Positions 2,012 to 51,953 of a stretch of 64,000 bases of DNA are shown piece by piece. The translations under genes and the position numbers were made by a program. The number at the start of each line of letters is the position of its first letter. Positions within the stretch are counted from its first letter, which is position 1. Source of the stretch: a virus. Its lineage: Duplodnaviria; Heunggongvirae; Uroviricota; Caudoviricetes. Where the stretch lies: IMG/VR virus record IMGVR_UViG_2687453424_000001. The stretch is one strand, 5' to 3'. The notes below the pieces were generated by a model, which saw nothing but the letters and a program-made list of their open reading frames with translations, was not told where the DNA came from and ran no database searches.

Positions 2012-2105
2012 GCCCAGAGAGAATATTCAGGCCAGTTATGCTTTCTGGCCTGTAACAAAGGACATTAAGTAAAGACAGATAAACGTAGACTAAAACGTGG
2101 TCGCA

Positions 2106-4252: not shown

Positions 4253-4259
4253 CCTTTAA

Positions 4260-4830: not shown

Positions 4831-5628
<798 letters not shown>

Positions 5629-5639
5629 CTAAATAAAAA

Positions 5640-11935: not shown

Positions 11936-11947
11936 TTTTTTTAAGGC

Positions 11948-12202
11948 CATAGGCAAGGTGAGTTTACACGCGCCATTGTATATCGCGTTCCTACACGCCT
12001 GCCGGTTGGCGACATCAGCCGGCAACATGAGAATGGAAATGGCGGCGATGGAGAGCCCGAAAACGACGACGAATTTGGGGAAATACGCTTGGTTAGCGTC
12101 GTCCGGGTGCTGGTAATTGACGAGGAGGTAGACATTGAAGAGGAACACTAGGACGCATACGATTATGGCGACGATTACCAGAGCGAGGTTGAAATCGCCC
12201 AT
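11948..12202 (-). CDS. Plant LIMR-family (LMBR1-like) membrane protein, exon 1 only; truncated at the vector junction after 85 codons
   Basis: ATG at 12202-12200 gives MGDFNLALVIVAIIVCVLVFLFNVYLLVNYQHPDDANQAYFPKFVVVFGLSIAAISILMLPADVANRQACRNAIYNGACKLTLPM, matching the conserved N-terminus of plant LIMR proteins. Homology ends exactly at 11948, where vector sequence begins. Confidence 0.75.
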
Positions 12203-13378
12203 CGTTAAAAGCCCTCGACTCGATTCGAATCGAATCGATAGCGGTAGATTCAACAGGAGATTTGAGAAATTAGGGTTTGCTTTTAACCCTTCGAATTTTA
12301 ATTCGAAGAATTTCGTAGATCTGAGCTTTCCTCTGTGTGTGTGTGTTTTTTTGAAAGGGAAAGGGGGGAGGTTGGGCTCCGGTGAGGTGGTTTGTTGAAT
12401 TTTGGGGTTAATTTTGACGTGTTGGAATTAAATGACGTTATTATCCTTGTGAATTGGTTAAATGACGGGTTGAAAATAGCGAGGAAGAGAGTTGCAGATG
12501 GGGTTGAATGTAACATCACCTTATATTCCCGTGACAAGCATCGAACCAGCCTGTCCAAGGCAAGAAGTTGTTTTTTAAAAAAAAAATTTACATGTAAGAA
12601 ATAACGCTATTTGAACTTTTAGACCGCTTTCTTTATCTTTTATTCCCGTAGAGAAATTCTCTCAATTTTGTTCTTTTTTTTTCCTCAAATCTTTTATTGT
12701 TCTTAATTATACCCTTCAATTGATATAAAAAAATAATTAGTAATTCTTTTTAGGTACGTAAGATTGAGATACTATTATGAATGAAAATTCTAGCTCAAGC
12801 TCCTCACATTTTATTAACGAACTCTTAAATTTTAATTTAAAACTAAACAAGTTTTTAATTTTAACAAAGATTTAACTGTCATTAGATTCGATGTTAATTG
12901 ACTTTTTTACTCACATGATATATTACTTGACGAATTAACATGATAATGTGATTGTTGACGTGGCTAAAAAAATATAATGAGTTTGGTCACATTAGTTGCG
13001 CGTGACCTCACCAATTCACTAAATCATATATCATGTGGACAGGAAAAATAATTAATATTGACTCTAATATTGATTAAATTTTTATTAAAATTAAAAGCTT
13101 GTTCGATTTTAAATCAAAATTTAAGAGTTTGTTTGAATGCAATAATTAAATAAATGATGATAGTACGTAAAATGTTTTTAGGATTGAAGCCATAATTTTA
13201 AGACAATATAAGCAACAAGTGTCTTATTTACTCATGTTCTCACCTAAAGACTTTTTTATGTTGTTACTTAGTGCATGTTTGGTTTAACTTTTTTTCAGTT
13301 TATCTATTTATTGAAAGTAAAAGTTAGGCCAAATATAATATTTTGAAAAACTCTTAAAAAAAAGTAACTTTTTTTAAG

Positions 13379-16300
13379 NNNNNNNNNNNNNNNNNNNNNN
13401 NNNNNNNNNNNNNNNNNNNNNNNNNNNNNNNNNNNNNNNNNNNNNNNNNNNNNNNNNNNNNNNNNNNNNNNNNNNNNNNNNNNNNNNNNNNNNNNNNNNN
13501 NNNNNNNNNNNNNNNNNNNNNNNNNNNNNNNNNNNNNNNNNNNNNNNNNNNNNNNNNNNNNNNNNNNNNNNNNNNNNNNNNNNNNNNNNNNNNNNNNNNN
13601 NNNNNNNNNNNNNNNNNNNNNNNNNNNNNNNNNNNNNNNNNNNNNNNNNNNNNNNNNNNNNNNNNNNNNNNNNNNNNNNNNNNNNNNNNNNNNNNNNNNN
13701 NNNNNNNNNNNNNNNNNNNNNNNNNNNNNNNNNNNNNNNNNNNNNNNNNNNNNNNNNNNNNNNNNNNNNNNNNNNNNNNNNNNNNNNNNNNNNNNNNNNN
13801 NNNNNNNNNNNNNNNNNNNNNNNNNNNNNNNNNNNNNNNNNNNNNNNNNNNNNNNNNNNNNNNNNNNNNNNNNNNNNNNNNNNNNNNNNNNNNNNNNNNN
13901 NNNNNNNNNNNNNNNNNNNNNNNNNNNNNNNNNNNNNNNNNNNNNNNNNNNNNNNNNNNNNNNNNNNNNNNNNNNNNNNNNNNNNNNNNNNNNNNNNNNN
14001 NNNNNNNNNNNNNNNNNNNNNNNNNNNNNNNNNNNNNNNNNNNNNNNNNNNNNNNNNNNNNNNNNNNNNNNNNNNNNNNNNNNNNNNNNNNNNNNNNNNN
14101 NNNNNNNNNNNNNNNNNNNNNNNNNNNNNNNNNNNNNNNNNNNNNNNNNNNNNNNNNNNNNNNNNNNNNNNNNNNNNNNNNNNNNNNNNNNNNNNNNNNN
14201 NNNNNNNNNNNNNNNNNNNNNNNNNNNNNNNNNNNNNNNNNNNNNNNNNNNNNNNNNNNNNNNNNNNNNNNNNNNNNNNNNNNNNNNNNNNNNNNNNNNN
14301 NNNNNNNNNNNNNNNNNNNNNNNNNNNNNNNNNNNNNNNNNNNNNNNNNNNNNNNNNNNNNNNNNNNNNNNNNNNNNNNNNNNNNNNNNNNNNNNNNNNN
14401 NNNNNNNNNNNNNNNNNNNNNNNNNNNNNNNNNNNNNNNNNNNNNNNNNNNNNNNNNNNNNNNNNNNNNNNNNNNNNNNNNNNNNNNNNNNNNNNNNNNN
14501 NNNNNNNNNNNNNNNNNNNNNNNNNNNNNNNNNNNNNNNNNNNNNNNNNNNNNNNNNNNNNNNNNNNNNNNNNNNNNNNNNNNNNNNNNNNNNNNNNNNN
14601 NNNNNNNNNNNNNNNNNNNNNNNNNNNNNNNNNNNNNNNNNNNNNNNNNNNNNNNNNNNNNNNNNNNNNNNNNNNNNNNNNNNNNNNNNNNNNNNNNNNN
14701 NNNNNNNNNNNNNNNNNNNNNNNNNNNNNNNNNNNNNNNNNNNNNNNNNNNNNNNNNNNNNNNNNNNNNNNNNNNNNNNNNNNNNNNNNNNNNNNNNNNN
14801 NNNNNNNNNNNNNNNNNNNNNNNNNNNNNNNNNNNNNNNNNNNNNNNNNNNNNNNNNNNNNNNNNNNNNNNNNNNNNNNNNNNNNNNNNNNNNNNNNNNN
14901 NNNNNNNNNNNNNNNNNNNNNNNNNNNNNNNNNNNNNNNNNNNNNNNNNNNNNNNNNNNNNNNNNNNNNNNNNNNNNNNNNNNNNNNNNNNNNNNNNNNN
15001 NNNNNNNNNNNNNNNNNNNNNNNNNNNNNNNNNNNNNNNNNNNNNNNNNNNNNNNNNNNNNNNNNNNNNNNNNNNNNNNNNNNNNNNNNNNNNNNNNNNN
15101 NNNNNNNNNNNNNNNNNNNNNNNNNNNNNNNNNNNNNNNNNNNNNNNNNNNNNNNNNNNNNNNNNNNNNNNNNNNNNNNNNNNNNNNNNNNNNNNNNNNN
15201 NNNNNNNNNNNNNNNNNNNNNNNNNNNNNNNNNNNNNNNNNNNNNNNNNNNNNNNNNNNNNNNNNNNNNNNNNNNNNNNNNNNNNNNNNNNNNNNNNNNN
15301 NNNNNNNNNNNNNNNNNNNNNNNNNNNNNNNNNNNNNNNNNNNNNNNNNNNNNNNNNNNNNNNNNNNNNNNNNNNNNNNNNNNNNNNNNNNNNNNNNNNN
15401 NNNNNNNNNNNNNNNNNNNNNNNNNNNNNNNNNNNNNNNNNNNNNNNNNNNNNNNNNNNNNNNNNNNNNNNNNNNNNNNNNNNNNNNNNNNNNNNNNNNN
15501 NNNNNNNNNNNNNNNNNNNNNNNNNNNNNNNNNNNNNNNNNNNNNNNNNNNNNNNNNNNNNNNNNNNNNNNNNNNNNNNNNNNNNNNNNNNNNNNNNNNN
15601 NNNNNNNNNNNNNNNNNNNNNNNNNNNNNNNNNNNNNNNNNNNNNNNNNNNNNNNNNNNNNNNNNNNNNNNNNNNNNNNNNNNNNNNNNNNNNNNNNNNN
15701 NNNNNNNNNNNNNNNNNNNNNNNNNNNNNNNNNNNNNNNNNNNNNNNNNNNNNNNNNNNNNNNNNNNNNNNNNNNNNNNNNNNNNNNNNNNNNNNNNNNN
15801 NNNNNNNNNNNNNNNNNNNNNNNNNNNNNNNNNNNNNNNNNNNNNNNNNNNNNNNNNNNNNNNNNNNNNNNNNNNNNNNNNNNNNNNNNNNNNNNNNNNN
15901 NNNNNNNNNNNNNNNNNNNNNNNNNNNNNNNNNNNNNNNNNNNNNNNNNNNNNNNNNNNNNNNNNNNNNNNNNNNNNNNNNNNNNNNNNNNNNNNNNNNN
16001 NNNNNNNNNNNNNNNNNNNNNNNNNNNNNNNNNNNNNNNNNNNNNNNNNNNNNNNNNNNNNNNNNNNNNNNNNNNNNNNNNNNNNNNNNNNNNNNNNNNN
16101 NNNNNNNNNNNNNNNNNNNNNNNNNNNNNNNNNNNNNNNNNNNNNNNNNNNNNNNNNNNNNNNNNNNNNNNNNNNNNNNNNNNNNNNNNNNNNNNNNNNN
16201 NNNNNNNNNNNNNNNNNNNNNNNNNNNNNNNNNNNNNNNNNNNNNNNNNNNNNNNNNNNNNNNNNNNNNNNNNNNNNNNNNNNNNNNNNNNNNNNNNNNN

Positions 16301-17520
16301 NNNNNNNNNNNNNNNNNNNNNNNNNNNNNNNNNNNNNNNNNNNNNNNNNNNNNNNNNNNNNNNNNNNNNNNNNNNNNNNNNNNNNNNNNNNNNNNNNNNN
16401 NNNNNNNNNNNNNNNNNNNNNNNNNNNNNNNNNNNNNNNNNNNNNNNNNNNNNNNNNNNNNNNNNNNNNNNNNNNNNNNNNNNNNNNNNNNNNNNNNNNN
16501 NNNNNNNNNNNNNNNNNNNNNNNNNNNNNNNNNNNNNNNNNNNNNNNNNNNNNNNNNNNNNNNNNNNNNNNNNNNNNNNNNNNNNNNNNNNNNNNNNNNN
16601 NNNNNNNNNNNNNNNNNNNNNNNNNNNNNNNNNNNNNNNNNNNNNNNNNNNNNNNNNNNNNNNNNNNNNNNNNNNNNNNNNNNNNNNNNNNNNNNNNNNN
16701 NNNNNNNNNNNNNNNNNNNNNNNNNNNNNNNNNNNNNNNNNNNNNNNNNNNNNNNNNNNNNNNNNNNNNNNNNNNNNNNNNNNNNNNNNNNNNNNNNNNN
16801 NNNNNNNNNNNNNNNNNNNNNNNNNNNNNNNNNNNNNNNNNNNNNNNNNNNNNNNNNNNNNNNNNNNNNNNNNNNNNNNNNNNNNNNNNNNNNNNNNNNN
16901 NNNNNNNNNNNNNNNNNNNNNNNNNNNNNNNNNNNNNNNNNNNNNNNNNNNNNNNNNNNNNNNNNNNNNNNNNNNNNNNNNNNNNNNNNNNNNNNNNNNN
17001 NNNNNNNNNNNNNNNNNNNNNNNNNNNNNNNNNNNNNNNNNNNNNNNNNNNNNNNNNNNNNNNNNNNNNNNNNNNNNNNNNNNNNNNNNNNNNNNNNNNN
17101 NNNNNNNNNNNNNNNNNNNNNNNNNNNNNNNNNNNNNNNNNNNNNNNNNNNNNNNNNNNNNNNNNNNNNNNNNNNNNNNNNNNNNNNNNNNNNNNNNNNN
17201 NNNNNNNNNNNNNNNNNNNNNNNNNNNNNNNNNNNNNNNNNNNNNNNNNNNNNNNNNNNNNNNNNNNNNNNNNNNNNNNNNNNNNNNNNNNNNNNNNNNN
17301 NNNNNNNNNNNNNNNNNNNNNNNNNNNNNNNNNNNNNNNNNNNNNNNNNNNNNNNNNNNNNNNNNNNNNNNNNNNNNNNNNNNNNNNNNNNNNNNNNNNN
17401 NNNNNNNNNNNNNNNNNNNNNNNNNNNNNNNNNNNNNNNNNNNNNNNNNNNNNNNNNNNNNNNNNNNNNNNNNNNNNNNNNNNNNNNNNNNNNNNNNNNN
17501 NNNNNNNNNNNNNNNNNNNN
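13379..17520. other. Run of N (gap or masked block)
   Basis: All n. Confidence 1.
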
Positions 17521-20234: not shown

Positions 20235-23200
20235 ATGGCGGAGCCAAATCGGAGTTCACCTTCCGCCTCCGCCTCCGCCTCTGCCTCCTCCTCCTCTTCA
20301 TCTTCGTCTTACAGGGAGGATTCAGGCGGTGCGGCCGGGGCGGCGGCGTCGTCTTCGGGTACTTCTTCGCAGGTTCGAGAGGAAGAGGAAGGGCAAGATC
20401 ACGAGTATCGGCAGCATCTGCAGCATTTTCATAACCCTGAGCTAGAGAATCAGCACATTGACCTAGTTTCTTATAGAGGTAACTTATCTGGTTTCGATGA
20501 TTCGTCAACGGTGATTGGAGACGACACGTGGTCTTGCATCATCGTGGTTCTCACTTTTTGGTTTTTCGGTTAGTACCCTTTTCCCCTTTCTCATGAATCG
20601 CTCGTTCTTTACATTTGAAAGTAAAAGCTTTTATCTTATGTTGATTCTTTTCGATTGATTTTCTTTTTGAATCGAACAGTGTCTATGACTTTGATTTTGG
20701 GTGTTTACGGGGCGGTGAATATACGGGTCGGTCCGAATTGTTCCCTTCTACTTCAACCGAATCCTATTTTTGTTCAGAGTGTAAAGGTGATTTGCCTTTT
20801 TCTTTTTTCCTTTCTAATTTTTTGATTCGTTTCATGCTTTTTCTTTAAAGGGAAGGGTGGTTTTTGGGTCTATATCTTATTTGGCTTTGTGTTAGGTTGA
20901 GGAGGTAGATGATACCAAGCCAGGGCTCAAACTATATGGATTTTATAAATCTCCATCTCTTGATGTAGTGACTACCTGGTCTGAAACTCGTACCGCTACT
21001 GTTCAAGCTGATTCTCACAAGGCAAGTTCGGTTTCTTGTTCTGTTTTTTGCTTGAATGTTTTGGTTCTGAACTTGTATTTCATTTCCCAAATTTTTTTTA
21101 TATTATCCAGGAGTGGATTCATTATCTGAACAGGGGCTCTCAAGTTAATATTTCATATAATGTGAACTCAGCAGGCTCCTCTGTTTTCCTTATAATTGCT
21201 CAAGGTATCCTGAAACACTAAAAGCTTTTTCAGAATGTGTTTCTCAAAGAATTATTTTCACAAAGTGTGTGTGGAAATGCTGTAGATTAAGTAATTGAAT
21301 CCTGGGAATCTGATGCTTTAATTCATTTTGTCACATTGCAGGCAGTGAGGGCCTTTCTCAATGGCTTGAGGACCCAACATATCCTAACACCACTTTGTCG
21401 TGGAACATTGTTCGTGGTGAGATGGAAATGCAAAAGTATGAATGTTCTTACTATATAGAGTTTTATGCTGACTTTGATATTACTTTTCGGCAGGAAGTGG
21501 TATGATTCAGCAGGATATATATAGATCTTCAAGTTACTATATTGCACTGGGTAATTTGAACTCAGAGGATGTGGAGGTAATTGAAAAAATTTGACCTGCC
21601 GAGCTTGGTTTGTTGTTTTGGTTCTTTCATTGAAGTTCTGCTAAAATATTTGAGATATTGAGATCAAAACTTCATTGTCTTCTGTTACCAACCTCAGAAA
21701 AGAAACGTTTCATGGTGCTTGTCCCTTTTGATTTGTCAGAATTGATATTATGATATGATTGAAGAATCGGATTAACTTACTAAGAAAGGGTTACTTTAAT
21801 CCATTTAAGCAATGCTACATTGTAACTGTGGTGGAAATATTATAAGTGCAGCAATGTCAAGTAAAACTTTGGGCTGAGGAGGGTGTTTATTTCTGCAAGG
21901 CTGCAGTTATAGAAGTATAGGAATCTATAATATGGATTGACATTTTTATGGTAAACATGAGAACATAAATGCTGCAAGTCTCAATTTACTTTAAAAGTTT
22001 GTATGAATGTCAGATGGACTAATGGGCAAAATTGAATAGCCATGGATCCATTTTCCTAACAATTATTTAAGCATATGACTTCAAAATATTAATTCCAAGA
22101 AACTCAGAACCTGCCAAGTCAGGTTTGAGAGGCAGGTATATATAATGGATATCTCAAGTTCAAGTAAATGCGCTGTAGGTGACAAAAAAGCCTATCATTC
22201 TCTCAGATTTCACTGAACCTTTTCTTTTTATTAGATGCTGTTCCCTTGCCCTTTTTTGTGTTCTTTGGTTTCATCTTTTCACATAAAAATTGAGTTGATT
22301 TTAACATTGAACAGGTGGAGTTAAACATCACAGTCAGGGCTTTCATCTACAATACAACTGAAGCTTACTACAGATGTACCTTCGGTAATGGCCTGTGTAG
22401 CTTGAGTGTTTTGTTTCCTCAGGGAAATTCTGTTGTCTTGACTTCTCCAGGTCTAGAACAGGTAAATCTCTTTTTATTTTAAACCTAAATCCTACTTTCT
22501 ATGTCTTTCTTGAGATTATGTCGTTTTGAAGGCTGTTACAGCGGCATTCCTATGTTATTAGGCATGATAAATATATGTTCTAATGCTTCCGTCTGTGCTG
22601 AATAATTTCTTATCTTTTGAAGTGCTATACTGAATAATTTCTAAATCCTGTTTTAGAAAGTCTTTTCATTTTCTGTTCTCCCTCTTTTTGGCTACTTCAG
22701 AGTACATCTGCAGATGACTGGTCTGTCAGATTGTCATATGGACCAAGATGGATTATATATATAGTTGGCATTGGTAAAGTTCTTTCTTTTAATTACTCTA
22801 AATGCGCAACCTTTACAAATGTTTCATGTTTAAATCTTGAATTCTAATTTTCTTCTTAAAGGTGGAATGACAGCAATCATGTTGGTAGCCTTCAACTTCT
22901 TAAACAAGTTCCAATTTACCCGTGGAGGTGAAACAAATCTTCATTATGGGGAGAATGCTTCTGCAAGGGCCCCTCTGCTTTCTAACAAAGATGATGATAT
23001 CTCAAGTTGGGGTTCATCCTACGATTCTGTCTCAAGTGATGAGGCAGATCTTGAAGATTTTCTGGCAGCAGGTTCTGTTGAAGGGACATCAATAAGAGAA
23101 GGTGAAAACAGTAACAATACCCGACGTCTTTGTGCAATTTGCTTCGATGCTCCAAGGGACTGCTTCTTCCTTCCTTGTGGGCACTGTGTGGCTTGCTTTG

Positions 23201-23463
23201 CATGTGGATCTAGGTAACTACTTTGCATCCTCACCTTTTTTACACGAAAGGTTGCTTTGGAAATAGTCTAGCTTCATTCTTAACCCTGCTCCCAATTTAC
23301 AACAGCAGGCTGTTCATCACCCTTAATGGTTCCCAGAACTTGAAATTTGCTCCTATCTGATGTTGTGCTGTAACTGATCTTTTGCAGAATCGCAGAGGCT
23401 GCTGGAACTTGCCCCATTTGCCGTCGGAACATGAAGAAAGTGAGGAAGATTTTCACAGTATAA
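20235..23463 (+). CDS. RING-type (C3HC4) E3 ubiquitin ligase, APD (ABERRANT POLLEN DEVELOPMENT)-like, 10 exons, about 488 aa
   Basis: Hand-traced exons 20235-20568, 20680-20786, 20896-21021 (GC donor), 21111-21204, 21342-21416, 21494-21576, 22315-22461, 22701-22773, 22862-23213, 23388-23463; total 1467 nt, in frame. N-terminus is Ser/Ala-rich; C-terminus has the RING [41 protein letters not shown]. APD assignment is from memory of the family architecture (internal hydrophobic segments plus C-terminal RING). Confidence 0.7.
20263..20308 (+). repeat. Imperfect trinucleotide repeat (GCC/TCC)n inside APD-like exon 1, encoding a poly-Ala/Ser tract
   Basis: ttccgcctccgcctccgcctctgcctcctcctcctcttcatcttcgtct translates to SASASASASSSSSSSS. 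Confidence 0.8.
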
Positions 23464-24742
23464 GTCACATTGAGCTCCTTTGCCAGCAGCAGAGCTTGCA
23501 CAGCCTGCCTGCTTCAATGAGTTGCAGTACGTTTTTGATGGGTCACTGCTTTTTATGCTCAAGTAAATGACACTCAGAAGGGGGATTATAAGCATTGATT
23601 TTTTTTAAAAGATGGAAGGAGCCATGCATTTTGTTTCCCTGGATGGCCTTCCACCATGTAATACTATCATCGGTACATAATGTTCGAGTAGACCAAGTCA
23701 AAGCTTCCAATGTAACTCTTTTCATTTCCCCCCCATTGATTACCAATTTAAGGCGCAGCAACTTCAAACTGAGATACTGTACCTTCCTGTCCTTCATTCT
23801 TTGGTATCTTTCAGCCTTCTCAACAGCATCAAGTAAACGACTAATCCAATCCCGTTTTTAATGCTTTTAGAGTATTTCTTACTATATTTTTTAATATTAT
23901 ATTCGAACATTTAATTCAATAATAAATATAAATATCTTTTTATTTAAAAAATAAAGTCGAATCCTTTATTAAAAAAAAAAAGGGTTCGGATGTCTTTTTT
24001 TTTAAATAAATAAAATTCAAATTTAATCAAAACTTAATCAATTTGTTTTATATTACAGTTTTAAAAAACAATAGTAAATCTCATAATAATTATGCATTAG
24101 AATAAAATTAAATATTTAACTGTTTTGATTATAATAAATTAAGGATGAAATGACAGGAGGGAGAAGGAAGATTTGCTTCTTTTTCTTTTTTCCACGAGGA
24201 AGTGGACTGGCGGAAAGAGAGTCAAAGCCATAGTTGACAGAAGTTGCAGTAGACAAGTTCGAGAAGCTTTCCTTTTCCTTTCTCTATTTCCCCCCACCTT
24301 CTGAACGTGGGGATCAAGATAACTATGGCCAACAAGATTGGAAACGAGCGGCGGCCTTCACTGCCTTCCTCCCAGCCTCTTAATATACTTTCTTTTTTCC
24401 CATCCCTGTTTTTGGCCCACCGCTTCTTCAGACCATGGTCATAATCATGACAGTGACATCAAAGTCAAAATTTTATTGTTAATAAAATATAACCTAATGT
24501 TTTTAGTCAACAGATTAATTGAACTAACTTTGACTACTTTATTTAACGAATTGCACAAAATCAACCAAGTTCGAGCTAGTTTATAATTAATTTATTCATA
24601 TTATTAGTTAAATTTAATTAAGTAAAATTGTGATATTTTATAATTTGATTCGAATAAGTTTTAAATTAAAAAATTAGGTTTGGACAATGATCACAAAATA
24701 TTTGTTTTTCGAATTTGATTATAAATGTTATTTTTAATAATT

Positions 24743-27700
24743 NNNNNNNNNNNNNNNNNNNNNNNNNNNNNNNNNNNNNNNNNNNNNNNNNNNNNNNNNN
24801 NNNNNNNNNNNNNNNNNNNNNNNNNNNNNNNNNNNNNNNNNNNNNNNNNNNNNNNNNNNNNNNNNNNNNNNNNNNNNNNNNNNNNNNNNNNNNNNNNNNN
24901 NNNNNNNNNNNNNNNNNNNNNNNNNNNNNNNNNNNNNNNNNNNNNNNNNNNNNNNNNNNNNNNNNNNNNNNNNNNNNNNNNNNNNNNNNNNNNNNNNNNN
25001 NNNNNNNNNNNNNNNNNNNNNNNNNNNNNNNNNNNNNNNNNNNNNNNNNNNNNNNNNNNNNNNNNNNNNNNNNNNNNNNNNNNNNNNNNNNNNNNNNNNN
25101 NNNNNNNNNNNNNNNNNNNNNNNNNNNNNNNNNNNNNNNNNNNNNNNNNNNNNNNNNNNNNNNNNNNNNNNNNNNNNNNNNNNNNNNNNNNNNNNNNNNN
25201 NNNNNNNNNNNNNNNNNNNNNNNNNNNNNNNNNNNNNNNNNNNNNNNNNNNNNNNNNNNNNNNNNNNNNNNNNNNNNNNNNNNNNNNNNNNNNNNNNNNN
25301 NNNNNNNNNNNNNNNNNNNNNNNNNNNNNNNNNNNNNNNNNNNNNNNNNNNNNNNNNNNNNNNNNNNNNNNNNNNNNNNNNNNNNNNNNNNNNNNNNNNN
25401 NNNNNNNNNNNNNNNNNNNNNNNNNNNNNNNNNNNNNNNNNNNNNNNNNNNNNNNNNNNNNNNNNNNNNNNNNNNNNNNNNNNNNNNNNNNNNNNNNNNN
25501 NNNNNNNNNNNNNNNNNNNNNNNNNNNNNNNNNNNNNNNNNNNNNNNNNNNNNNNNNNNNNNNNNNNNNNNNNNNNNNNNNNNNNNNNNNNNNNNNNNNN
25601 NNNNNNNNNNNNNNNNNNNNNNNNNNNNNNNNNNNNNNNNNNNNNNNNNNNNNNNNNNNNNNNNNNNNNNNNNNNNNNNNNNNNNNNNNNNNNNNNNNNN
25701 NNNNNNNNNNNNNNNNNNNNNNNNNNNNNNNNNNNNNNNNNNNNNNNNNNNNNNNNNNNNNNNNNNNNNNNNNNNNNNNNNNNNNNNNNNNNNNNNNNNN
25801 NNNNNNNNNNNNNNNNNNNNNNNNNNNNNNNNNNNNNNNNNNNNNNNNNNNNNNNNNNNNNNNNNNNNNNNNNNNNNNNNNNNNNNNNNNNNNNNNNNNN
25901 NNNNNNNNNNNNNNNNNNNNNNNNNNNNNNNNNNNNNNNNNNNNNNNNNNNNNNNNNNNNNNNNNNNNNNNNNNNNNNNNNNNNNNNNNNNNNNNNNNNN
26001 NNNNNNNNNNNNNNNNNNNNNNNNNNNNNNNNNNNNNNNNNNNNNNNNNNNNNNNNNNNNNNNNNNNNNNNNNNNNNNNNNNNNNNNNNNNNNNNNNNNN
26101 NNNNNNNNNNNNNNNNNNNNNNNNNNNNNNNNNNNNNNNNNNNNNNNNNNNNNNNNNNNNNNNNNNNNNNNNNNNNNNNNNNNNNNNNNNNNNNNNNNNN
26201 NNNNNNNNNNNNNNNNNNNNNNNNNNNNNNNNNNNNNNNNNNNNNNNNNNNNNNNNNNNNNNNNNNNNNNNNNNNNNNNNNNNNNNNNNNNNNNNNNNNN
26301 NNNNNNNNNNNNNNNNNNNNNNNNNNNNNNNNNNNNNNNNNNNNNNNNNNNNNNNNNNNNNNNNNNNNNNNNNNNNNNNNNNNNNNNNNNNNNNNNNNNN
26401 NNNNNNNNNNNNNNNNNNNNNNNNNNNNNNNNNNNNNNNNNNNNNNNNNNNNNNNNNNNNNNNNNNNNNNNNNNNNNNNNNNNNNNNNNNNNNNNNNNNN
26501 NNNNNNNNNNNNNNNNNNNNNNNNNNNNNNNNNNNNNNNNNNNNNNNNNNNNNNNNNNNNNNNNNNNNNNNNNNNNNNNNNNNNNNNNNNNNNNNNNNNN
26601 NNNNNNNNNNNNNNNNNNNNNNNNNNNNNNNNNNNNNNNNNNNNNNNNNNNNNNNNNNNNNNNNNNNNNNNNNNNNNNNNNNNNNNNNNNNNNNNNNNNN
26701 NNNNNNNNNNNNNNNNNNNNNNNNNNNNNNNNNNNNNNNNNNNNNNNNNNNNNNNNNNNNNNNNNNNNNNNNNNNNNNNNNNNNNNNNNNNNNNNNNNNN
26801 NNNNNNNNNNNNNNNNNNNNNNNNNNNNNNNNNNNNNNNNNNNNNNNNNNNNNNNNNNNNNNNNNNNNNNNNNNNNNNNNNNNNNNNNNNNNNNNNNNNN
26901 NNNNNNNNNNNNNNNNNNNNNNNNNNNNNNNNNNNNNNNNNNNNNNNNNNNNNNNNNNNNNNNNNNNNNNNNNNNNNNNNNNNNNNNNNNNNNNNNNNNN
27001 NNNNNNNNNNNNNNNNNNNNNNNNNNNNNNNNNNNNNNNNNNNNNNNNNNNNNNNNNNNNNNNNNNNNNNNNNNNNNNNNNNNNNNNNNNNNNNNNNNNN
27101 NNNNNNNNNNNNNNNNNNNNNNNNNNNNNNNNNNNNNNNNNNNNNNNNNNNNNNNNNNNNNNNNNNNNNNNNNNNNNNNNNNNNNNNNNNNNNNNNNNNN
27201 NNNNNNNNNNNNNNNNNNNNNNNNNNNNNNNNNNNNNNNNNNNNNNNNNNNNNNNNNNNNNNNNNNNNNNNNNNNNNNNNNNNNNNNNNNNNNNNNNNNN
27301 NNNNNNNNNNNNNNNNNNNNNNNNNNNNNNNNNNNNNNNNNNNNNNNNNNNNNNNNNNNNNNNNNNNNNNNNNNNNNNNNNNNNNNNNNNNNNNNNNNNN
27401 NNNNNNNNNNNNNNNNNNNNNNNNNNNNNNNNNNNNNNNNNNNNNNNNNNNNNNNNNNNNNNNNNNNNNNNNNNNNNNNNNNNNNNNNNNNNNNNNNNNN
27501 NNNNNNNNNNNNNNNNNNNNNNNNNNNNNNNNNNNNNNNNNNNNNNNNNNNNNNNNNNNNNNNNNNNNNNNNNNNNNNNNNNNNNNNNNNNNNNNNNNNN
27601 NNNNNNNNNNNNNNNNNNNNNNNNNNNNNNNNNNNNNNNNNNNNNNNNNNNNNNNNNNNNNNNNNNNNNNNNNNNNNNNNNNNNNNNNNNNNNNNNNNNN

Positions 27701-28502
27701 NNNNNNNNNNNNNNNNNNNNNNNNNNNNNNNNNNNNNNNNNNNNNNNNNNNNNNNNNNNNNNNNNNNNNNNNNNNNNNNNNNNNNNNNNNNNNNNNNNNN
27801 NNNNNNNNNNNNNNNNNNNNNNNNNNNNNNNNNNNNNNNNNNNNNNNNNNNNNNNNNNNNNNNNNNNNNNNNNNNNNNNNNNNNNNNNNNNNNNNNNNNN
27901 NNNNNNNNNNNNNNNNNNNNNNNNNNNNNNNNNNNNNNNNNNNNNNNNNNNNNNNNNNNNNNNNNNNNNNNNNNNNNNNNNNNNNNNNNNNNNNNNNNNN
28001 NNNNNNNNNNNNNNNNNNNNNNNNNNNNNNNNNNNNNNNNNNNNNNNNNNNNNNNNNNNNNNNNNNNNNNNNNNNNNNNNNNNNNNNNNNNNNNNNNNNN
28101 NNNNNNNNNNNNNNNNNNNNNNNNNNNNNNNNNNNNNNNNNNNNNNNNNNNNNNNNNNNNNNNNNNNNNNNNNNNNNNNNNNNNNNNNNNNNNNNNNNNN
28201 NNNNNNNNNNNNNNNNNNNNNNNNNNNNNNNNNNNNNNNNNNNNNNNNNNNNNNNNNNNNNNNNNNNNNNNNNNNNNNNNNNNNNNNNNNNNNNNNNNNN
28301 NNNNNNNNNNNNNNNNNNNNNNNNNNNNNNNNNNNNNNNNNNNNNNNNNNNNNNNNNNNNNNNNNNNNNNNNNNNNNNNNNNNNNNNNNNNNNNNNNNNN
28401 NNNNNNNNNNNNNNNNNNNNNNNNNNNNNNNNNNNNNNNNNNNNNNNNNNNNNNNNNNNNNNNNNNNNNNNNNNNNNNNNNNNNNNNNNNNNNNNNNNNN
28501 NN
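24743..28502. other. Run of N (gap or masked block)
   Basis: All n. Confidence 1.
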
Positions 28503-29171: not shown

Positions 29172-30101
29172 ATGGCAGGAACCGGGGTGGTTGCTGTTTA
29201 TGGAAACGGGGCGATAACCGAAACCCACAAGTCTCCTTTCTCAGTGAAAGTTGGGTTGGCGCAAATGCTCCGAGGCGGGGTCATCATGGACGTGGTCACC
29301 CCGGAACAAGCCCGCATCGCTGAAGAAGCGGGAGCCTGCGCCGTCATGGCTCTCGAGCGAGTCCCGGCCGATATCCGAGCTCAAGGCGGTGTGGCCCGAA
29401 TGAGTGATCCACAACTCATCAAGGAAATTAAGCAAGCGGTTACTATCCCCGTCATGGCTAAGGCCCGTATTGGTCATTTCGTTGAGGCCCAGATCCTTGA
29501 AGCCATCGGAATCGATTATGTTGACGAGAGCGAAGTGCTTACCCCAGCCGACGAAGAGAACCACATTAACAAACATAATTTTCGGATTCCTTTCGTTTGC
29601 GGGTGTCGGAATTTGGGGGAAGCGCTTCGGAGGATCCGGGAAGGAGCTGCTATGATTCGAACCAAAGGAGAAGCTGGGACCGGCAACATTATCGAAGCCG
29701 TTAGGCACGTGAGGTCCGTGATGGGAGACATTAGGGTGCTTAGAAACATGGATGATGATGAGGTTTTCAGCTTCGCTAAGAAAATTCAGTCCCCATACGA
29801 TTTGGTCATGCAGACGAAGCAACTGGGGAGGTTGCCCGTGGTGCACTTTGCTGCCGGAGGAGTGGCGACGCCGGCTGATGCGGCGTTGATGATGCAGTTG
29901 GGCTGCGATGGAGTGTTTGTGGGGTCTGGGGTTTTTAAGAGTGGTGACCCGGCGAGACGGGCCCGGGCTATTGTCCAGGCCGTCACTCATTATAGTGACC
30001 CGGACGTGCTTGCTGAAGTTAGCTGTGGGCTTGGTGAGGCTATGGTTGGTCTTAATTTGAATGATAAGAAGGTTGAGAGGTTCGCGGCTCGGTCTGAATA
30101 A
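29172..30101 (+). CDS. PDX1: Pyridoxal 5'-phosphate synthase subunit PDX1 (vitamin B6 biosynthesis), intronless, 309 aa
   Basis: Single [83 protein letters not shown]...[20 protein letters not shown], the highly conserved PDX1/SNZ/PdxS sequence. Plant PDX1 genes are characteristically intronless. Confidence 0.92.
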
Positions 30102-33221: not shown

Positions 33222-36200
33222 NNNNNNNNNNNNNNNNNNNNNNNNNNNNNNNNNNNNNNNNNNNNNNNNNNNNNNNNNNNNNNNNNNNNNNNNNNNNNNN
33301 NNNNNNNNNNNNNNNNNNNNNNNNNNNNNNNNNNNNNNNNNNNNNNNNNNNNNNNNNNNNNNNNNNNNNNNNNNNNNNNNNNNNNNNNNNNNNNNNNNNN
33401 NNNNNNNNNNNNNNNNNNNNNNNNNNNNNNNNNNNNNNNNNNNNNNNNNNNNNNNNNNNNNNNNNNNNNNNNNNNNNNNNNNNNNNNNNNNNNNNNNNNN
33501 NNNNNNNNNNNNNNNNNNNNNNNNNNNNNNNNNNNNNNNNNNNNNNNNNNNNNNNNNNNNNNNNNNNNNNNNNNNNNNNNNNNNNNNNNNNNNNNNNNNN
33601 NNNNNNNNNNNNNNNNNNNNNNNNNNNNNNNNNNNNNNNNNNNNNNNNNNNNNNNNNNNNNNNNNNNNNNNNNNNNNNNNNNNNNNNNNNNNNNNNNNNN
33701 NNNNNNNNNNNNNNNNNNNNNNNNNNNNNNNNNNNNNNNNNNNNNNNNNNNNNNNNNNNNNNNNNNNNNNNNNNNNNNNNNNNNNNNNNNNNNNNNNNNN
33801 NNNNNNNNNNNNNNNNNNNNNNNNNNNNNNNNNNNNNNNNNNNNNNNNNNNNNNNNNNNNNNNNNNNNNNNNNNNNNNNNNNNNNNNNNNNNNNNNNNNN
33901 NNNNNNNNNNNNNNNNNNNNNNNNNNNNNNNNNNNNNNNNNNNNNNNNNNNNNNNNNNNNNNNNNNNNNNNNNNNNNNNNNNNNNNNNNNNNNNNNNNNN
34001 NNNNNNNNNNNNNNNNNNNNNNNNNNNNNNNNNNNNNNNNNNNNNNNNNNNNNNNNNNNNNNNNNNNNNNNNNNNNNNNNNNNNNNNNNNNNNNNNNNNN
34101 NNNNNNNNNNNNNNNNNNNNNNNNNNNNNNNNNNNNNNNNNNNNNNNNNNNNNNNNNNNNNNNNNNNNNNNNNNNNNNNNNNNNNNNNNNNNNNNNNNNN
34201 NNNNNNNNNNNNNNNNNNNNNNNNNNNNNNNNNNNNNNNNNNNNNNNNNNNNNNNNNNNNNNNNNNNNNNNNNNNNNNNNNNNNNNNNNNNNNNNNNNNN
34301 NNNNNNNNNNNNNNNNNNNNNNNNNNNNNNNNNNNNNNNNNNNNNNNNNNNNNNNNNNNNNNNNNNNNNNNNNNNNNNNNNNNNNNNNNNNNNNNNNNNN
34401 NNNNNNNNNNNNNNNNNNNNNNNNNNNNNNNNNNNNNNNNNNNNNNNNNNNNNNNNNNNNNNNNNNNNNNNNNNNNNNNNNNNNNNNNNNNNNNNNNNNN
34501 NNNNNNNNNNNNNNNNNNNNNNNNNNNNNNNNNNNNNNNNNNNNNNNNNNNNNNNNNNNNNNNNNNNNNNNNNNNNNNNNNNNNNNNNNNNNNNNNNNNN
34601 NNNNNNNNNNNNNNNNNNNNNNNNNNNNNNNNNNNNNNNNNNNNNNNNNNNNNNNNNNNNNNNNNNNNNNNNNNNNNNNNNNNNNNNNNNNNNNNNNNNN
34701 NNNNNNNNNNNNNNNNNNNNNNNNNNNNNNNNNNNNNNNNNNNNNNNNNNNNNNNNNNNNNNNNNNNNNNNNNNNNNNNNNNNNNNNNNNNNNNNNNNNN
34801 NNNNNNNNNNNNNNNNNNNNNNNNNNNNNNNNNNNNNNNNNNNNNNNNNNNNNNNNNNNNNNNNNNNNNNNNNNNNNNNNNNNNNNNNNNNNNNNNNNNN
34901 NNNNNNNNNNNNNNNNNNNNNNNNNNNNNNNNNNNNNNNNNNNNNNNNNNNNNNNNNNNNNNNNNNNNNNNNNNNNNNNNNNNNNNNNNNNNNNNNNNNN
35001 NNNNNNNNNNNNNNNNNNNNNNNNNNNNNNNNNNNNNNNNNNNNNNNNNNNNNNNNNNNNNNNNNNNNNNNNNNNNNNNNNNNNNNNNNNNNNNNNNNNN
35101 NNNNNNNNNNNNNNNNNNNNNNNNNNNNNNNNNNNNNNNNNNNNNNNNNNNNNNNNNNNNNNNNNNNNNNNNNNNNNNNNNNNNNNNNNNNNNNNNNNNN
35201 NNNNNNNNNNNNNNNNNNNNNNNNNNNNNNNNNNNNNNNNNNNNNNNNNNNNNNNNNNNNNNNNNNNNNNNNNNNNNNNNNNNNNNNNNNNNNNNNNNNN
35301 NNNNNNNNNNNNNNNNNNNNNNNNNNNNNNNNNNNNNNNNNNNNNNNNNNNNNNNNNNNNNNNNNNNNNNNNNNNNNNNNNNNNNNNNNNNNNNNNNNNN
35401 NNNNNNNNNNNNNNNNNNNNNNNNNNNNNNNNNNNNNNNNNNNNNNNNNNNNNNNNNNNNNNNNNNNNNNNNNNNNNNNNNNNNNNNNNNNNNNNNNNNN
35501 NNNNNNNNNNNNNNNNNNNNNNNNNNNNNNNNNNNNNNNNNNNNNNNNNNNNNNNNNNNNNNNNNNNNNNNNNNNNNNNNNNNNNNNNNNNNNNNNNNNN
35601 NNNNNNNNNNNNNNNNNNNNNNNNNNNNNNNNNNNNNNNNNNNNNNNNNNNNNNNNNNNNNNNNNNNNNNNNNNNNNNNNNNNNNNNNNNNNNNNNNNNN
35701 NNNNNNNNNNNNNNNNNNNNNNNNNNNNNNNNNNNNNNNNNNNNNNNNNNNNNNNNNNNNNNNNNNNNNNNNNNNNNNNNNNNNNNNNNNNNNNNNNNNN
35801 NNNNNNNNNNNNNNNNNNNNNNNNNNNNNNNNNNNNNNNNNNNNNNNNNNNNNNNNNNNNNNNNNNNNNNNNNNNNNNNNNNNNNNNNNNNNNNNNNNNN
35901 NNNNNNNNNNNNNNNNNNNNNNNNNNNNNNNNNNNNNNNNNNNNNNNNNNNNNNNNNNNNNNNNNNNNNNNNNNNNNNNNNNNNNNNNNNNNNNNNNNNN
36001 NNNNNNNNNNNNNNNNNNNNNNNNNNNNNNNNNNNNNNNNNNNNNNNNNNNNNNNNNNNNNNNNNNNNNNNNNNNNNNNNNNNNNNNNNNNNNNNNNNNN
36101 NNNNNNNNNNNNNNNNNNNNNNNNNNNNNNNNNNNNNNNNNNNNNNNNNNNNNNNNNNNNNNNNNNNNNNNNNNNNNNNNNNNNNNNNNNNNNNNNNNNN

Positions 36201-37506
36201 NNNNNNNNNNNNNNNNNNNNNNNNNNNNNNNNNNNNNNNNNNNNNNNNNNNNNNNNNNNNNNNNNNNNNNNNNNNNNNNNNNNNNNNNNNNNNNNNNNNN
36301 NNNNNNNNNNNNNNNNNNNNNNNNNNNNNNNNNNNNNNNNNNNNNNNNNNNNNNNNNNNNNNNNNNNNNNNNNNNNNNNNNNNNNNNNNNNNNNNNNNNN
36401 NNNNNNNNNNNNNNNNNNNNNNNNNNNNNNNNNNNNNNNNNNNNNNNNNNNNNNNNNNNNNNNNNNNNNNNNNNNNNNNNNNNNNNNNNNNNNNNNNNNN
36501 NNNNNNNNNNNNNNNNNNNNNNNNNNNNNNNNNNNNNNNNNNNNNNNNNNNNNNNNNNNNNNNNNNNNNNNNNNNNNNNNNNNNNNNNNNNNNNNNNNNN
36601 NNNNNNNNNNNNNNNNNNNNNNNNNNNNNNNNNNNNNNNNNNNNNNNNNNNNNNNNNNNNNNNNNNNNNNNNNNNNNNNNNNNNNNNNNNNNNNNNNNNN
36701 NNNNNNNNNNNNNNNNNNNNNNNNNNNNNNNNNNNNNNNNNNNNNNNNNNNNNNNNNNNNNNNNNNNNNNNNNNNNNNNNNNNNNNNNNNNNNNNNNNNN
36801 NNNNNNNNNNNNNNNNNNNNNNNNNNNNNNNNNNNNNNNNNNNNNNNNNNNNNNNNNNNNNNNNNNNNNNNNNNNNNNNNNNNNNNNNNNNNNNNNNNNN
36901 NNNNNNNNNNNNNNNNNNNNNNNNNNNNNNNNNNNNNNNNNNNNNNNNNNNNNNNNNNNNNNNNNNNNNNNNNNNNNNNNNNNNNNNNNNNNNNNNNNNN
37001 NNNNNNNNNNNNNNNNNNNNNNNNNNNNNNNNNNNNNNNNNNNNNNNNNNNNNNNNNNNNNNNNNNNNNNNNNNNNNNNNNNNNNNNNNNNNNNNNNNNN
37101 NNNNNNNNNNNNNNNNNNNNNNNNNNNNNNNNNNNNNNNNNNNNNNNNNNNNNNNNNNNNNNNNNNNNNNNNNNNNNNNNNNNNNNNNNNNNNNNNNNNN
37201 NNNNNNNNNNNNNNNNNNNNNNNNNNNNNNNNNNNNNNNNNNNNNNNNNNNNNNNNNNNNNNNNNNNNNNNNNNNNNNNNNNNNNNNNNNNNNNNNNNNN
37301 NNNNNNNNNNNNNNNNNNNNNNNNNNNNNNNNNNNNNNNNNNNNNNNNNNNNNNNNNNNNNNNNNNNNNNNNNNNNNNNNNNNNNNNNNNNNNNNNNNNN
37401 NNNNNNNNNNNNNNNNNNNNNNNNNNNNNNNNNNNNNNNNNNNNNNNNNNNNNNNNNNNNNNNNNNNNNNNNNNNNNNNNNNNNNNNNNNNNNNNNNNNN
37501 NNNNNN
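33222..37506. other. Run of N (gap or masked block)
   Basis: All n. Confidence 1.
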
Positions 37507-37621
37507 CCAATCGCTTCCTCCAATTGAAATCAACAACTAAAACAAACAAACAAACAAAAAATAGCCTTCATGAAATAAAACGGTGAATTGTTACGGTTTC
37601 TTTTTTCTAGTTTTCTTTGTA

Positions 37622-48090: not shown

Positions 48091-48110
48091 TCTCTCTCTC
48101 TCTCTCTCTC
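48091..48110. repeat. (TC)10 microsatellite
   Basis: tctctctctctctctctctc in the intergenic region between the symplekin and DnaJ genes. Confidence 0.95.
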
Positions 48111-49363
48111 TTAACGCTTATTAATTTAAAGTTGTACTTGTAATTACATTAACCATGACTGACCTCAAGCTGGTTTACAGCCTCTGATTAAGTGGAAAGT
48201 AATGCAGGCATATGCCTACCCCTTGCCTTTCACTCTGGTCGCGAAAGCTTACTCCATCTTTTCCTGGTGAGCGGATCAGTGACGCAATTTGTAGCCATCA
48301 GTGCAAAACCCAATCTGGTATGCTAACACCAGCCAACATTCTACTTCTCCAGGATCGAAAGGGGAGTGGAATCCGCTCTCAGCGGAACCCAGATGATAAT
48401 TATTGTCAAGTAAGAAACTCTCTATTGGTATTGCATCTATAGTTTAACTGATTGTTAATTAAAAAACAGGGTCTTGCATAACATTTCAGAATCCAATGAC
48501 AGCATGTATTCGTAGAATCTTACACAGGAATCAGATTGGCCTCAATTCTAGGAAAACTACCCCATCAAAACTAGTTTTTTTATCACCAGAAGTAACTAAA
48601 ATTCAACAGCCATGAGTGAGTATGACAGCCTACCTGATTATCATGTGGCTGTCTGGTGTGTCTACTAGATAATGGAAAAACATGGTATTCCCTTTTGGTC
48701 CAAGCAAAGAAACTGTTGTAAGTGTCGAGGGATTGTAATAAAAAAAGAAACCGACAAAGATAGATAGATAGATCCTTCACATGTTCCTAGCATTCCCTGT
48801 CGTTTCACATGGTGTCACTTAACCAAAAACTAGATTTAGCTTTGAACCGTATCCTAACATGTCCAAAGCGAATTCCAACCCACTGTTTGCTATCGAAAGA
48901 CATAACTTTTTAATCTGCAAAGACATGTTTCTGGAAAATTTGTACATTTCAATATTTGGCTTTTGAAAAAATTAAGAAATTTATTTGAAATGAATTTTTT
49001 TGGTATTAAAAAGTATTGAATAGTCATATCATAAAAAGAAAATTTTAAATTTTAATGTAAAATATATCAAAATAAAATTTGTTTGTCTTAATTTTTTGGG
49101 CCAACAACCTCGAAAATTAGTTTGGGCTAGAGAGAATAGAAATAAGCTTCTGACAAATTTGATAATGGGCCTAAGCCTAACCTTCTTTGCCTCTTAAGTT
49201 ACCACCTTACTCTCCCCCATCAATGGCTTTCCATATAATAAACTCAGGCGATTTATCTTGGTGGAGGAAAGAGTTGAAGTAGTGACAGAAAGAAAAGGAA
49301 AGAAAATTCAAAGAGAGAAAAGAAAAATCTTCCAGCAGCGGAAAGAGGAAAGGAATTGGAAGA

Positions 49364-51953
49364 ATGGGCGTTGATTATTACAAGATTCTTCAGGTCGACC
49401 GGAATGCAAAAGATGAAGATTTGAAGAAAGCTTATCGGAAACTGGCCATGAAGTGGCATCCCGATAAAAACCCTAAGAACAAGAAAGATGCCGAAGCCAA
49501 ATTTAAGCAAATCTCCGAGGCTTACGATGTAAATTTTATTTTATTTGATTTTTTTGGTTATTTATTTATTTTTTTAATGGAATTTTCAATTAATTGTAGG
49601 TTTTGAGTGATCCCCAAAAGCGTGCGGTTTATGATCAATACGGAGAAGAAGGATTAAAGGGCCACATGCCACCCCCGGGGGCGGGCGGGTTTCCCGGAGG
49701 GGCGGACGGGGGTCCGACGATGTTCCGGTTCAATACTCGGAGCCCCGATGATATTTTCTCGGAAATTTTCGGGTTTTCGAGTCCGTTTGGGGGGATGGGT
49801 GATATGGGCGGGTCACGTGCTGGGGCGTCGGGTTTCCCCAGGGGCATGTTTGGGGAAGATATTTTCGCCTCGTTGAGGGGCGGAGCTGGAGAGGGTTCTA
49901 CGACTATGCCCCGAAAAGGACCCGCTATTGAACGAACATTGCCTTGCAGCTTGGAGGATTTGTATAAAGGGACTACCAAGAAGATGAAGATTTCTAGAGA
50001 TGTTTCTGATGGTATCGGGTAATCTTTTATTTCTATTTTTTTCTTTTTAAAGTTAATTTAGTTGGGTAATGCTTAGTTTTGCTATTTTGATTTTACTAGT
50101 ATGTGGATAAGTGATTTTCAGCTGGATTTATCTGTAGATCTAAGTTCAATTTATTAGCTTTGAGCATAACTTATAATTTAATGTAGAACATCAATAATTG
50201 AATCCTGAAAGGTTTTTTAGGCATAAGACAAGGAATAATTAACATTTTCAAGCAGCGGATATCTTAGCTTGAGTCGCAAAAGATGTTTACAGAGGTTGCC
50301 GAGTTTGACTTTTTGCGAAAAATGGTACTTGTTAGGATAATATGATTCTATTATTTAAAATGATTGGTTGTTTCCCCAAGTGATGACAAAGTTGCATGAC
50401 AGTTAGATTTGATCCAAAAAGTTGTGATTGTTGAGATCTTATGAGCATTATTTTACATTGTTATTCAATTGAGTCTTTTCTGATCTGCGGTCTTAATGTT
50501 CGAGACAGATTTAGATTGGTCAGCATATTTCAGCAAACAAGCAACGCTATTAGAATAATAAACCAGAAATAAACCGGTCGTGTAAGTGTATATTTTGGAG
50601 AATCATAGCTAGGGGCATTTAACTCTGTTAGGCAAACATAATTTAAATTTTATTAGATTTTCTTATCTGGAAAGGAATCTTATGGGGATTTCTTTGCATG
50701 AAGGTATACTCTTTCTCTGTGTTTGATCCTTCTTCCTTATATAGCAAAAAGACTTTCTTTTTCATTCCTCTTTCTCTTTTTGTTTTTCGGTTTTGGTTCA
50801 CTGTCTTTTTAACTTATGGTCAGTTTTTTAATTTCCTGAGTAATAGAGATACTTCTATGGTATTATATAATCTGTTTTGATTATATGATTATTTCCTATT
50901 ATCCTCAACAAAGCTTCTTTCACAATTTGTTCTTTTTCCATAAAGATTAGATTGATCATGGAGATTATTTGTCCATCTATGTGTTTGTGACCAACTTTGG
51001 GAATTTCTTGATGCTTACTCAAGATTCATTTTTTAAGTTCTCTTTTTTTGTATTTTGCTTTATGCCAAATTTGTAAATTTGGCTTCAGCTGATGATAATT
51101 GCTGCATGTTGAAAATAATAGTGGCTTTGTGACGGTATGTCCCTGTCATCAGTTAGCCTTGCTGTTTTGCTTCAGTTTAACCAGATTATCCACAAGCTGG
51201 TAGTTTTTAGATCAGCACACTAGTTGGAATTTCCTAGAACACAACTTTATATCAGCTTAATTTACCATGTGAATTCAACTTGTCGAGTCCGAAATTTGCA
51301 TTCTACTGAATGCTTATATGCTTAAAACTGTGAGTGCTTACAATTTTGCACTTTGTATATTTATTAAGACTTACGTAGTTAAATTATGGCGAGAGAAGTT
51401 CCTAGTTCTAGCAATAATATGTAGTTTTGGGAAATCTTAAAACCGTGATCTTTTACAGTTAACTTTTTTATTCCTTTATTTTCAAGAAAATACTTTTTTA
51501 TCCCTTTACAGGAGACCTACTACAGTGGAGGAAATTCTTACTATTGAGATTAAGCCAGGGTGGAAAAAAGGTACAAAAATCACTTTTCCAGAGAAGGGAA
51601 ACGAGCAACGAGGGGTTATTCCTTCTGACCTTGTCTTCATCATTGACGAGAAGCCTCACGGTGTGTTCAAGAGGGATGGCAATGATCTTGTTGTTACTCA
51701 GAAGATATCTCTAGTGGAAGCTCTTACTGGTTATACAGCACAGCTGACAACGCTTGATGGACGGAATCTGACGGTCCCTATTAACAACGTCATTAGTCCA
51801 ACCTATGAAGAGGTTGTTAAAGGTGAGGGAATGCCCATTCCCAAGGAACCTTCTAAGAAAGGAAATTTGAGAATTAAATTCAGCATCAAGTTCCCTACCA
51901 AGCTTACGACAGAGCAGAAAACTGGCCTGAAGCGGTTAATGTCATCTCCCTAG
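49364..51953 (+). CDS. DnaJ/Hsp40 subfamily B co-chaperone (J-domain protein), 3 exons, 341 aa
   Basis: Exons 49364-49528, 49600-50018, 51512-51953 (1026 nt, in frame). J-domain [37 protein letters not shown] with HPD motif, Gly/Phe-rich linker ([12 protein letters not shown]...FGGMGDMGG), and C-terminal substrate-binding domain ([26 protein letters not shown]...). Confidence 0.88.

Follow-up and report, generated by a model that had tools for sequence, protein, structure and literature searches.

The DNA stretch analysed here, hereafter the window, comprises the 64,000 nucleotides of record IMGVR_UViG_2687453424_000001, which is catalogued as a virus in IMG/VR but carries a block of conserved plant genes from cacao (Theobroma cacao). 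Six genes at positions 11948-51953, namely LMBR1 (-), APD (+), PDX1 (+), a rhodanese (-), symplekin (+) and a class-B DnaJ (+), were found at the positions, in the order and on the strands given in a preliminary description made from the sequence, and domains and exact protein matches upheld all six gene calls. This cacao segment almost certainly owes its gene order to the ancestor that Malvales and Brassicales share, with the Arabidopsis copies being multiplied and then losing different genes. One ancestral segment would have been carried forward from that ancestor, and cacao keeps it in a single copy, with LMBR1 (-), APD (+), PDX1 (+), rhodanese (-), symplekin (+), DnaJ (+), Alfin (+), MYB-CC (+) and a 2-oxoglutarate (2OG)-oxygenase (-). 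In the Arabidopsis lineage the segment would have been multiplied, after which each copy would have shed different genes: the chromosome 5 copy retains LMBR1, APD2, PDX1.3, ESP4 and DnaJ (At5g01460-At5g01390) plus four genes that cacao lacks, the chromosome 3-type copy LMBR1, the rhodanese STR10 and DnaJ (At3g08930-10), and the chromosome 2 copy tandem APD genes, PDX1.1 and a 2OG-oxygenase. What the analysis shows directly is which genes the four segments hold, in what order and on which strands, along with the exact protein matches and the true extent of the N gaps. As the cause we infer whole-genome duplication and differential gene loss, the established model for Arabidopsis. The simplest reading needs common descent alone, and there is no indication of the genes working together.

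The Arabidopsis thaliana side was read from the Col-0 chromosome 5 record CP002688.1 at 152,803-192,526 (loci L021, L014 and L024 combined), which was anchored on the AtPDX1.3 sequence from solved structures and walked stepwise by exact-protein look-ups. With PDX1.3 on the plus strand, the order was methyltransferase (-), LMBR1 (509 aa, -), APD (444 aa, +), AT5G01445 (+), a PqqF-like gene (-), Got1 (+), the glutaredoxin gene At5g01420 (+), PDX1.3 (+), the symplekin gene ESP4 (1467 aa, +), DnaJ (335 aa, +) and a trihelix gene (+). The order and relative orientation of LMBR1 (-), APD (+), PDX1 (+), symplekin (+) and DnaJ (+) match between cacao and this segment, so that the proposal of the preliminary description, in which the order of these five genes mirrored At5g01460-At5g01390, was borne out on CP002688.1 and extends to orientation. 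The domain sets were common to both segments (LMBR1; APD1-4_N/M with RING; SOR_SNZ; SYMPK_PTA1_N with Symplekin_C; DnaJ with DnaJ_C), and gene structure was conserved in the paired genes. PDX1 is intronless in both species, both DnaJ introns of cacao lie at codon positions identical to those of At5g01390, and the cacao symplekin gene aligned to A. thaliana ESP4 exon by exon in ~30 collinear coding high-scoring segment pairs (HSPs) with 43-86% identity. Cacao PDX1 was 92.6% identical to AtPDX1.3 and 88.4% identical to AtPDX1.1, with bit scores of 624 for PDX1.3, 585 for PDX1.1 and 423 for PDX1.2. Cacao APD and A. thaliana APD2 shared 50.6% identity (8 HSPs, 409 aa).

Locus identifiers in the Arabidopsis Genome Initiative (AGI) numbering, which the preliminary description had given, stood by name in five cases. 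AT5G01445 and At5g01420 were seen as database names, and published work lists AT5G01390 as DNAJ, At5g01400 as symplekin and AT5G01450 as RING/U-box. The other two, At5g01460 for the LMBR1 gene and At5g01410 for PDX1.3, follow only from position and AGI numbering; the accessions AED90339 (ESP4), AED90340 (PDX1.3) and AED90341 (glutaredoxin) are consecutive.

Two of the chromosome 5 genes had to be modelled. For ESP4, three rounds of exon-chain searching gave products of 1393-1628 aa, and correcting seven junctions by hand, with spliced templates as a guide, yielded a 1466-aa model, which is exactly the annotated isoform NP_001330014.1; the cluster of this isoform supplied the 1467-aa isoform. 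A guessed 1467-aa tandem-donor variant was wrong and is not in the sequence collection, and low-stringency tblastn returned noise. For AT5G01445 there were 0 single-intron solutions and 10 two-intron candidates; of the 7 submitted, a single one, that with good splice sites, proved real. The last exon of A. thaliana ESP4 (L014 20002-20703) encodes a 234-aa low-complexity tail with four tandem 15-aa repeats (SEMSQSQNSPIDTGR) and a poly-Glu end. No significant counterpart of this C-terminal tail was found in the cacao gene, and tail differences may account for the length range of 1445-1481 aa among Arabidopsis annotations. As a separate observation, the glutaredoxin-PDX1.3 pair is tandemly duplicated at 226-261 kb of CM032910.1 (GCA_019202805.1), where two exact PDX1.3 copies lie ~13 kb apart; this assembly apparently represents the A. 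suecica subgenome of arenosa type.

A homology search with At5g01390 led to an Arabidopsis-genus paralogue with 81% identity; A. thaliana At3g08910 did not appear under its own name among the matches listed. The neighbourhood of this paralogue (chromosome 3-type) in A. arenosa (LR999453.1) and A. suecica (CM032907.1) consists of Lhcb (-), LMBR1 (-), rhodanese (-), DnaJ (+) and RGP (+). Published work identifies AT3G08920 as STR10 and At3g08910 as DNAJ, and the NCBI name of the cacao rhodanese follows Arabidopsis STR10. Identity between the cacao rhodanese and the one at the At3g08920-type position was 57.8%. A decayed rhodanese was sought in the Arabidopsis PDX1.3-ESP4 spacer, with nothing better than E = 1. 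The preliminary description had set the rhodanese outside the Arabidopsis block, which is correct for chromosome 5, but its place in the At3g08910-30-type duplicate, with LMBR1 on one side and DnaJ on the other, makes the gene a member of the ancestral block. A one-to-three relationship thereby explains the ‘extra’ rhodanese.

On chromosome 2 of A. thaliana (locus L009) the order was APD (+), APD (+), PDX1.1 (+), 2OG-oxygenase (-) and trihelix. We take PDX1.1 to be At2g38230 and this segment to be the APD1/3/4 region. PDX1.3 and PDX1.1 were 89% identical, and the 2OG-oxygenase of the window matched the chromosome 2 oxygenase (L009 11337-13195, -) with 61% identity over 341 aa in 3 HSPs. From its adjacency to PDX1.1 we infer the latter to be At2g38240, which is JOX4 according to the paper describing the JOX genes.

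The three paralogous segments (chromosome 5, chromosome 3-type and chromosome 2) are each collinear with cacao and hold complementary subsets of genes, all in cacao order. One cacao segment thus appears co-orthologous to three gene-depleted Arabidopsis duplicates, in a relationship of 1:2 or 1:3 and not 1:1, because the chromosome 3-type block keeps the rhodanese, the chromosome 2 block keeps the matching oxygenase, and DnaJ and LMBR1 match both of their copies equally well. A strict 1:1 orthology with At5g01390-At5g01460 only, with the rhodanese as an insertion on the cacao side, was implicit in the preliminary description. It would account for the counterparts of five of the six cacao genes on chromosome 5, in equal order and orientation, and for PDX1 being nearest to PDX1.3, the closest partner by pairwise identity. 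We nevertheless consider it improbable, as LMBR1 (-), rhodanese (-) and DnaJ (+) occur in cacao order on a second Arabidopsis-genus segment, the downstream 2OG-oxygenase of the window matches the gene beside PDX1.1, and the chromosome 3-type copies are as near to cacao as those on chromosome 5 or slightly nearer (DnaJ 76.6 vs 75.4%; LMBR1 exon 1 88.2 vs 87.1%).

Four points weigh against descent from one ancestral segment through three depleted copies. The chromosome 3-type segment was read from the A. arenosa and A. suecica assemblies, and for A. thaliana it is represented by AGI annotations in papers only. The APD identity of ~50% does not discriminate between APD2 and the chromosome 2 copies. 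Paralogue divergence was seen as protein identities only, and not as synonymous divergence (Ks), and the comparison spans cacao and Arabidopsis, so that any assignment to particular duplication events would be provisional and the four chromosome 5 genes may have been either gained in Arabidopsis or lost in cacao. Finally, neither Alfin nor MYB-CC matched anything at the four Arabidopsis loci compared, so that any downstream limit set for the block there would likewise be provisional.

The species and locus of the plant DNA were established from the window itself. Positions 11948-64000 are a T. cacao chromosome segment joined to a mini-F bacterial artificial chromosome (BAC) vector. The PDX1, rhodanese and DnaJ proteins of the window are exact T. 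cacao proteins, and the plant part is collinear with CM001883.1 of the Matina assembly at 99.7-99.99% identity, which together identify both species and locus as cacao. By accession numbering the segment probably comes from chromosome 5, at ~0.80-0.84 Mb in Matina. Six chromosome-scale cacao-type assemblies carry the exact PDX1 protein and the same annotated gene order.

Upstream of the plant DNA, the open reading frame (ORF) of the chloramphenicol acetyltransferase gene (cat) spans 11276-11935, and the join at 11947/11948 falls 12 bp past its stop codon and within LMBR1 exon 1, with blastn matches to the cacao loci beginning exactly at 11948. In BAC vectors cat does not adjoin the cloning site, and the join therefore looks like an assembly join rather than a true vector-insert junction. 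No recognisable cloning site was seen at 11947/11948; in the cacao reference a GATC occurs 8 bp further upstream.

The whole window, including the run of Ns, is 100% identical to LN877770.1 (GCA_001405275.1, locus tags BN1843_), a record of 5,027,063 bp labelled Escherichia coli, in which it lies reversed at ~2.93-3.0 Mb. One paper gives LN877770.1 as the genome of MC1061. Besides the BAC vector, the record holds cacao DNA amounting to at least 52 kb, and the ‘hypothetical protein BN1843_28120 [Escherichia coli]’ is a cacao symplekin exon. A search of RefSeq complete E. coli genomes with the plant part gave no match. Either contamination or mis-scaffolding has brought a cacao BAC into LN877770.1, and plant exons called as E. 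coli proteins in a public ‘E. coli’ genome record are flagged here as a database problem. The preliminary description had remarked on neither the vector nature of the first 12 kb nor the E. coli label.

Five runs of N occur in the window (1-1845, 6811-11161, 13379-17520, 24743-28502 and 33222-37506). Their lengths are irregular (1845, 4351, 4142, 3760 and 4285), and each one checked stands for only 1-312 bp. The run at 6811-11161 (4351 N) takes the place of just 1 bp in a vector backbone whose sequence is known throughout. In the closest cacao assembly the flanks of the three plant-side runs are 53, 24 and 312 bp apart, and most of the remaining assemblies (six examined) show comparably short distances. 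With flanks 24-312 bp apart and a vector run equal to 1 bp, the gap sizes are inflated and leave no room for hidden genes; the runs are oversized gaps, inflated by ~4 kb each, between nearly abutting contigs. The suggestion in the preliminary description that the runs at 13379-17520 and 24743-28502 may hide orthologues of At5g01420-At5g01445 accordingly fails. The Arabidopsis glutaredoxin (Grx), Got1, PqqF-like and AT5G01445 proteins had no match in the whole window, and flank spacing together with the absent protein matches rules out the presence of Got1, Grx or genes of that kind inside the runs. Cacao annotations show no gene between APD and PDX1, nor at the other plant-side N-run points.

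That the runs instead represent real sequence of the cloned cacao genotype, whether genes or large insertions, missing from the reference assemblies is very unlikely. They are long (3.8-4.3 kb) and irregular in size, which suggests estimated gaps; the reference in which all three plant-side runs close to so few base pairs is, however, 99.7-99.99% identical to the window, the vector run demonstrates the inflation directly, and the annotations place no genes at these points. Searching the N runs for hidden genes is pointless.

Selection holding the block together, for instance if the divergent LMBR1/APD pair or the run from PDX1 through symplekin to DnaJ were regulated jointly, is given very little credence. 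If it were true, it would explain how five unrelated genes kept their order and orientation on chromosome 5 despite heavy loss elsewhere; the evidence is neutral in this respect, and simple descent is sufficient. Coincidence, with common gene families lying close together by chance and their best Arabidopsis matches really scattered, can practically be dismissed: DnaJ-B, RING and rhodanese genes do form multi-copy families with homologues in many places, but the five homologues are collinear on the same relative strands within 38 kb of Arabidopsis chromosome 5 and not scattered, the outcome that the preliminary description had named as fatal to its claim, symplekin exons and DnaJ introns correspond, identities are high, and the chance that five homologues would fall within ~10 consecutive genes with order and relative orientation both preserved, taking the Arabidopsis gene total as roughly 27,000, is by rough estimate below 1e-10 even when family sizes are allowed for.

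Table 1. Features of the window and the evidence for each; L001 and L025 are cacao loci and L007 is a vector locus.
Feature	Position	Strand	Evidence and remarks
Mini-F BAC vector backbone (sopB, sopA, repE, recombinase fragment)	1846-6810	-	Not plant; 100% identity over 4965 bp to F-derived vectors, e.g. pMiniF_lacIq
Vector segment with chloramphenicol acetyltransferase gene	11162-11947	+	99.9% identity to L007 2111-1326
LMBR1-like (LIMR family), exon 1 fragment, 85 codons, cut by vector join	11948-12202	-	Pfam LMBR1 E=1.4e-14
N run, 4142 N, LMBR1-APD intergenic	13379-17520	.	Replaces ~53 bp; flanks at L001 2030/2084; 40-55 bp apart in most other assemblies
APD-type RING E3 ligase, multi-exon	~20235-24305	+	L001 gene 4801-8868; APD1-4_N, APD1-4_M and zf-C3HC4_3 on annotated cacao protein
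N run, 3760 N, between APD and PDX1	24743-28502	.	Replaces ~24 bp; flanks at L001 9307/9332
PDX1 (pyridoxal 5'-phosphate synthase subunit), intronless, 309 aa	29172-30101	+	SOR_SNZ E=3e-113; protein encoded by 29172-30098, exact EOY07201.1
Rhodanese-like (STR10-like), 2 exons (32550-32096, 32016-31818), 217 aa	31818-32550	-	Model exactly EOY07200.1
N run, 4285 N, upstream of symplekin	33222-37506	.	Replaces ~312 bp; flanks at L001 14052/14365; identical run in LN877770.1
Symplekin (ESP4 orthologue), ~27 exons, 1336-1338 aa	37622-47669	+	SYMPK_PTA1_N and Symplekin_C on annotated product; ATG and TGA checked
Class-B DnaJ/Hsp40, 3 exons (49364-49528, 49600-50018, 51512-51953), 341 aa	49364-51953	+	Model exactly EOY07192.1 / XP_017977736.1; DnaJ and DnaJ_C
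Alfin-like PHD-finger gene, 239 aa	53410-55590	+	Alfin E=5e-45 on exon ORF; L025 gene 14047-16227, Alfin and PHD
MYB-CC gene (Myb_DNA-binding and Myb_CC_LHEQLE), 243 aa	56905-58157	+	L025 gene 17542-18794; ORF 57770-58150
2OG/Fe(II) oxygenase, JOX-like, 360 aa	61227-63128	-	DIOX_N E=7e-30; L025 gene starting 21864

The features of the window are listed in Table 1. At the LMBR1 locus, cacao annotations give a full protein of 510-512 aa. The RING exon of APD was recognised in the ORF at 22837-23217 (Pfam zf-C3HC4_3), and the 3' end of this gene depends on the annotation, with products of 487-556 aa across cacao annotations. In the downstream stretch 53410-63128 an 81-aa gene (-) is called in one annotation only. 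A 340-aa DnaJ-B protein of Hibiscus syriacus bears the name ‘PHD finger protein ALFIN-LIKE 1-like’, probably a naming slip from the adjoining Alfin gene, which hints that the DnaJ-Alfin adjacency of cacao is also present in Hibiscus. In Arabidopsis, JOX2/AL1 (At5g05600/10) and JOX1/AL2 (At3g11180/200) are presumably adjacent pairs too, and this would suggest that the ancestral segment left more rearranged pieces at these two places. A trihelix gene (Myb_DNA-bind_4) follows the block both on chromosome 5 (L024 23634-25301, past DnaJ) and on chromosome 2 (L009 17796-18912, past the oxygenase), which predicts a trihelix gene just beyond the window end in cacao.

The preliminary description had spoken of a deeply conserved eudicot microsynteny, which exceeds the evidence, as the comparison covers cacao and Arabidopsis, both malvid rosids. 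The synteny is ordinary and inherited, and every gene was already annotated in both genomes; the analysis is useful in that it validates the earlier gene calls, and it adds little as biology. Its most noteworthy by-product is the cacao BAC inside a public ‘E. coli’ genome record.

Compared with the cacao references (Matina CM001883.1, ~0.80-0.84 Mb; Criollo LT594792.1), the window represents the same locus with the same annotated genes, and it alone has the oversized N gaps, the start inside LMBR1 exon 1 at the vector join and the E. coli label. The Arabidopsis chromosome 5 segment At5g01460-At5g01390 (CP002688.1 ~160.5-191.0 kb) resembles cacao in the divergent LMBR1/APD pair. It differs in having four genes between APD2 and PDX1.3 (AT5G01445, PqqF-like, Got1 and glutaredoxin At5g01420), in lacking the rhodanese that cacao has between PDX1 and symplekin, and in what follows DnaJ, which is a trihelix gene in Arabidopsis and Alfin, MYB-CC and the 2OG-oxygenase in cacao. 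The chromosome 3-type segment (At3g08940-At3g08900) is without APD, PDX1 and symplekin and has flanks of its own that are absent from the window (a CP29-type Lhcb gene and an RGP gene), whereas LMBR1 (-), rhodanese (-) and DnaJ (+) agree with cacao in order and orientation. The chromosome 2 segment is without LMBR1, rhodanese, symplekin, DnaJ, Alfin and MYB-CC, and its APD gene is tandemly duplicated, but it shares with cacao the succession of APD, PDX1 and then 2OG-oxygenase (-). Microsynteny between cacao and Arabidopsis, with gene loss in Arabidopsis after duplication, is textbook knowledge.

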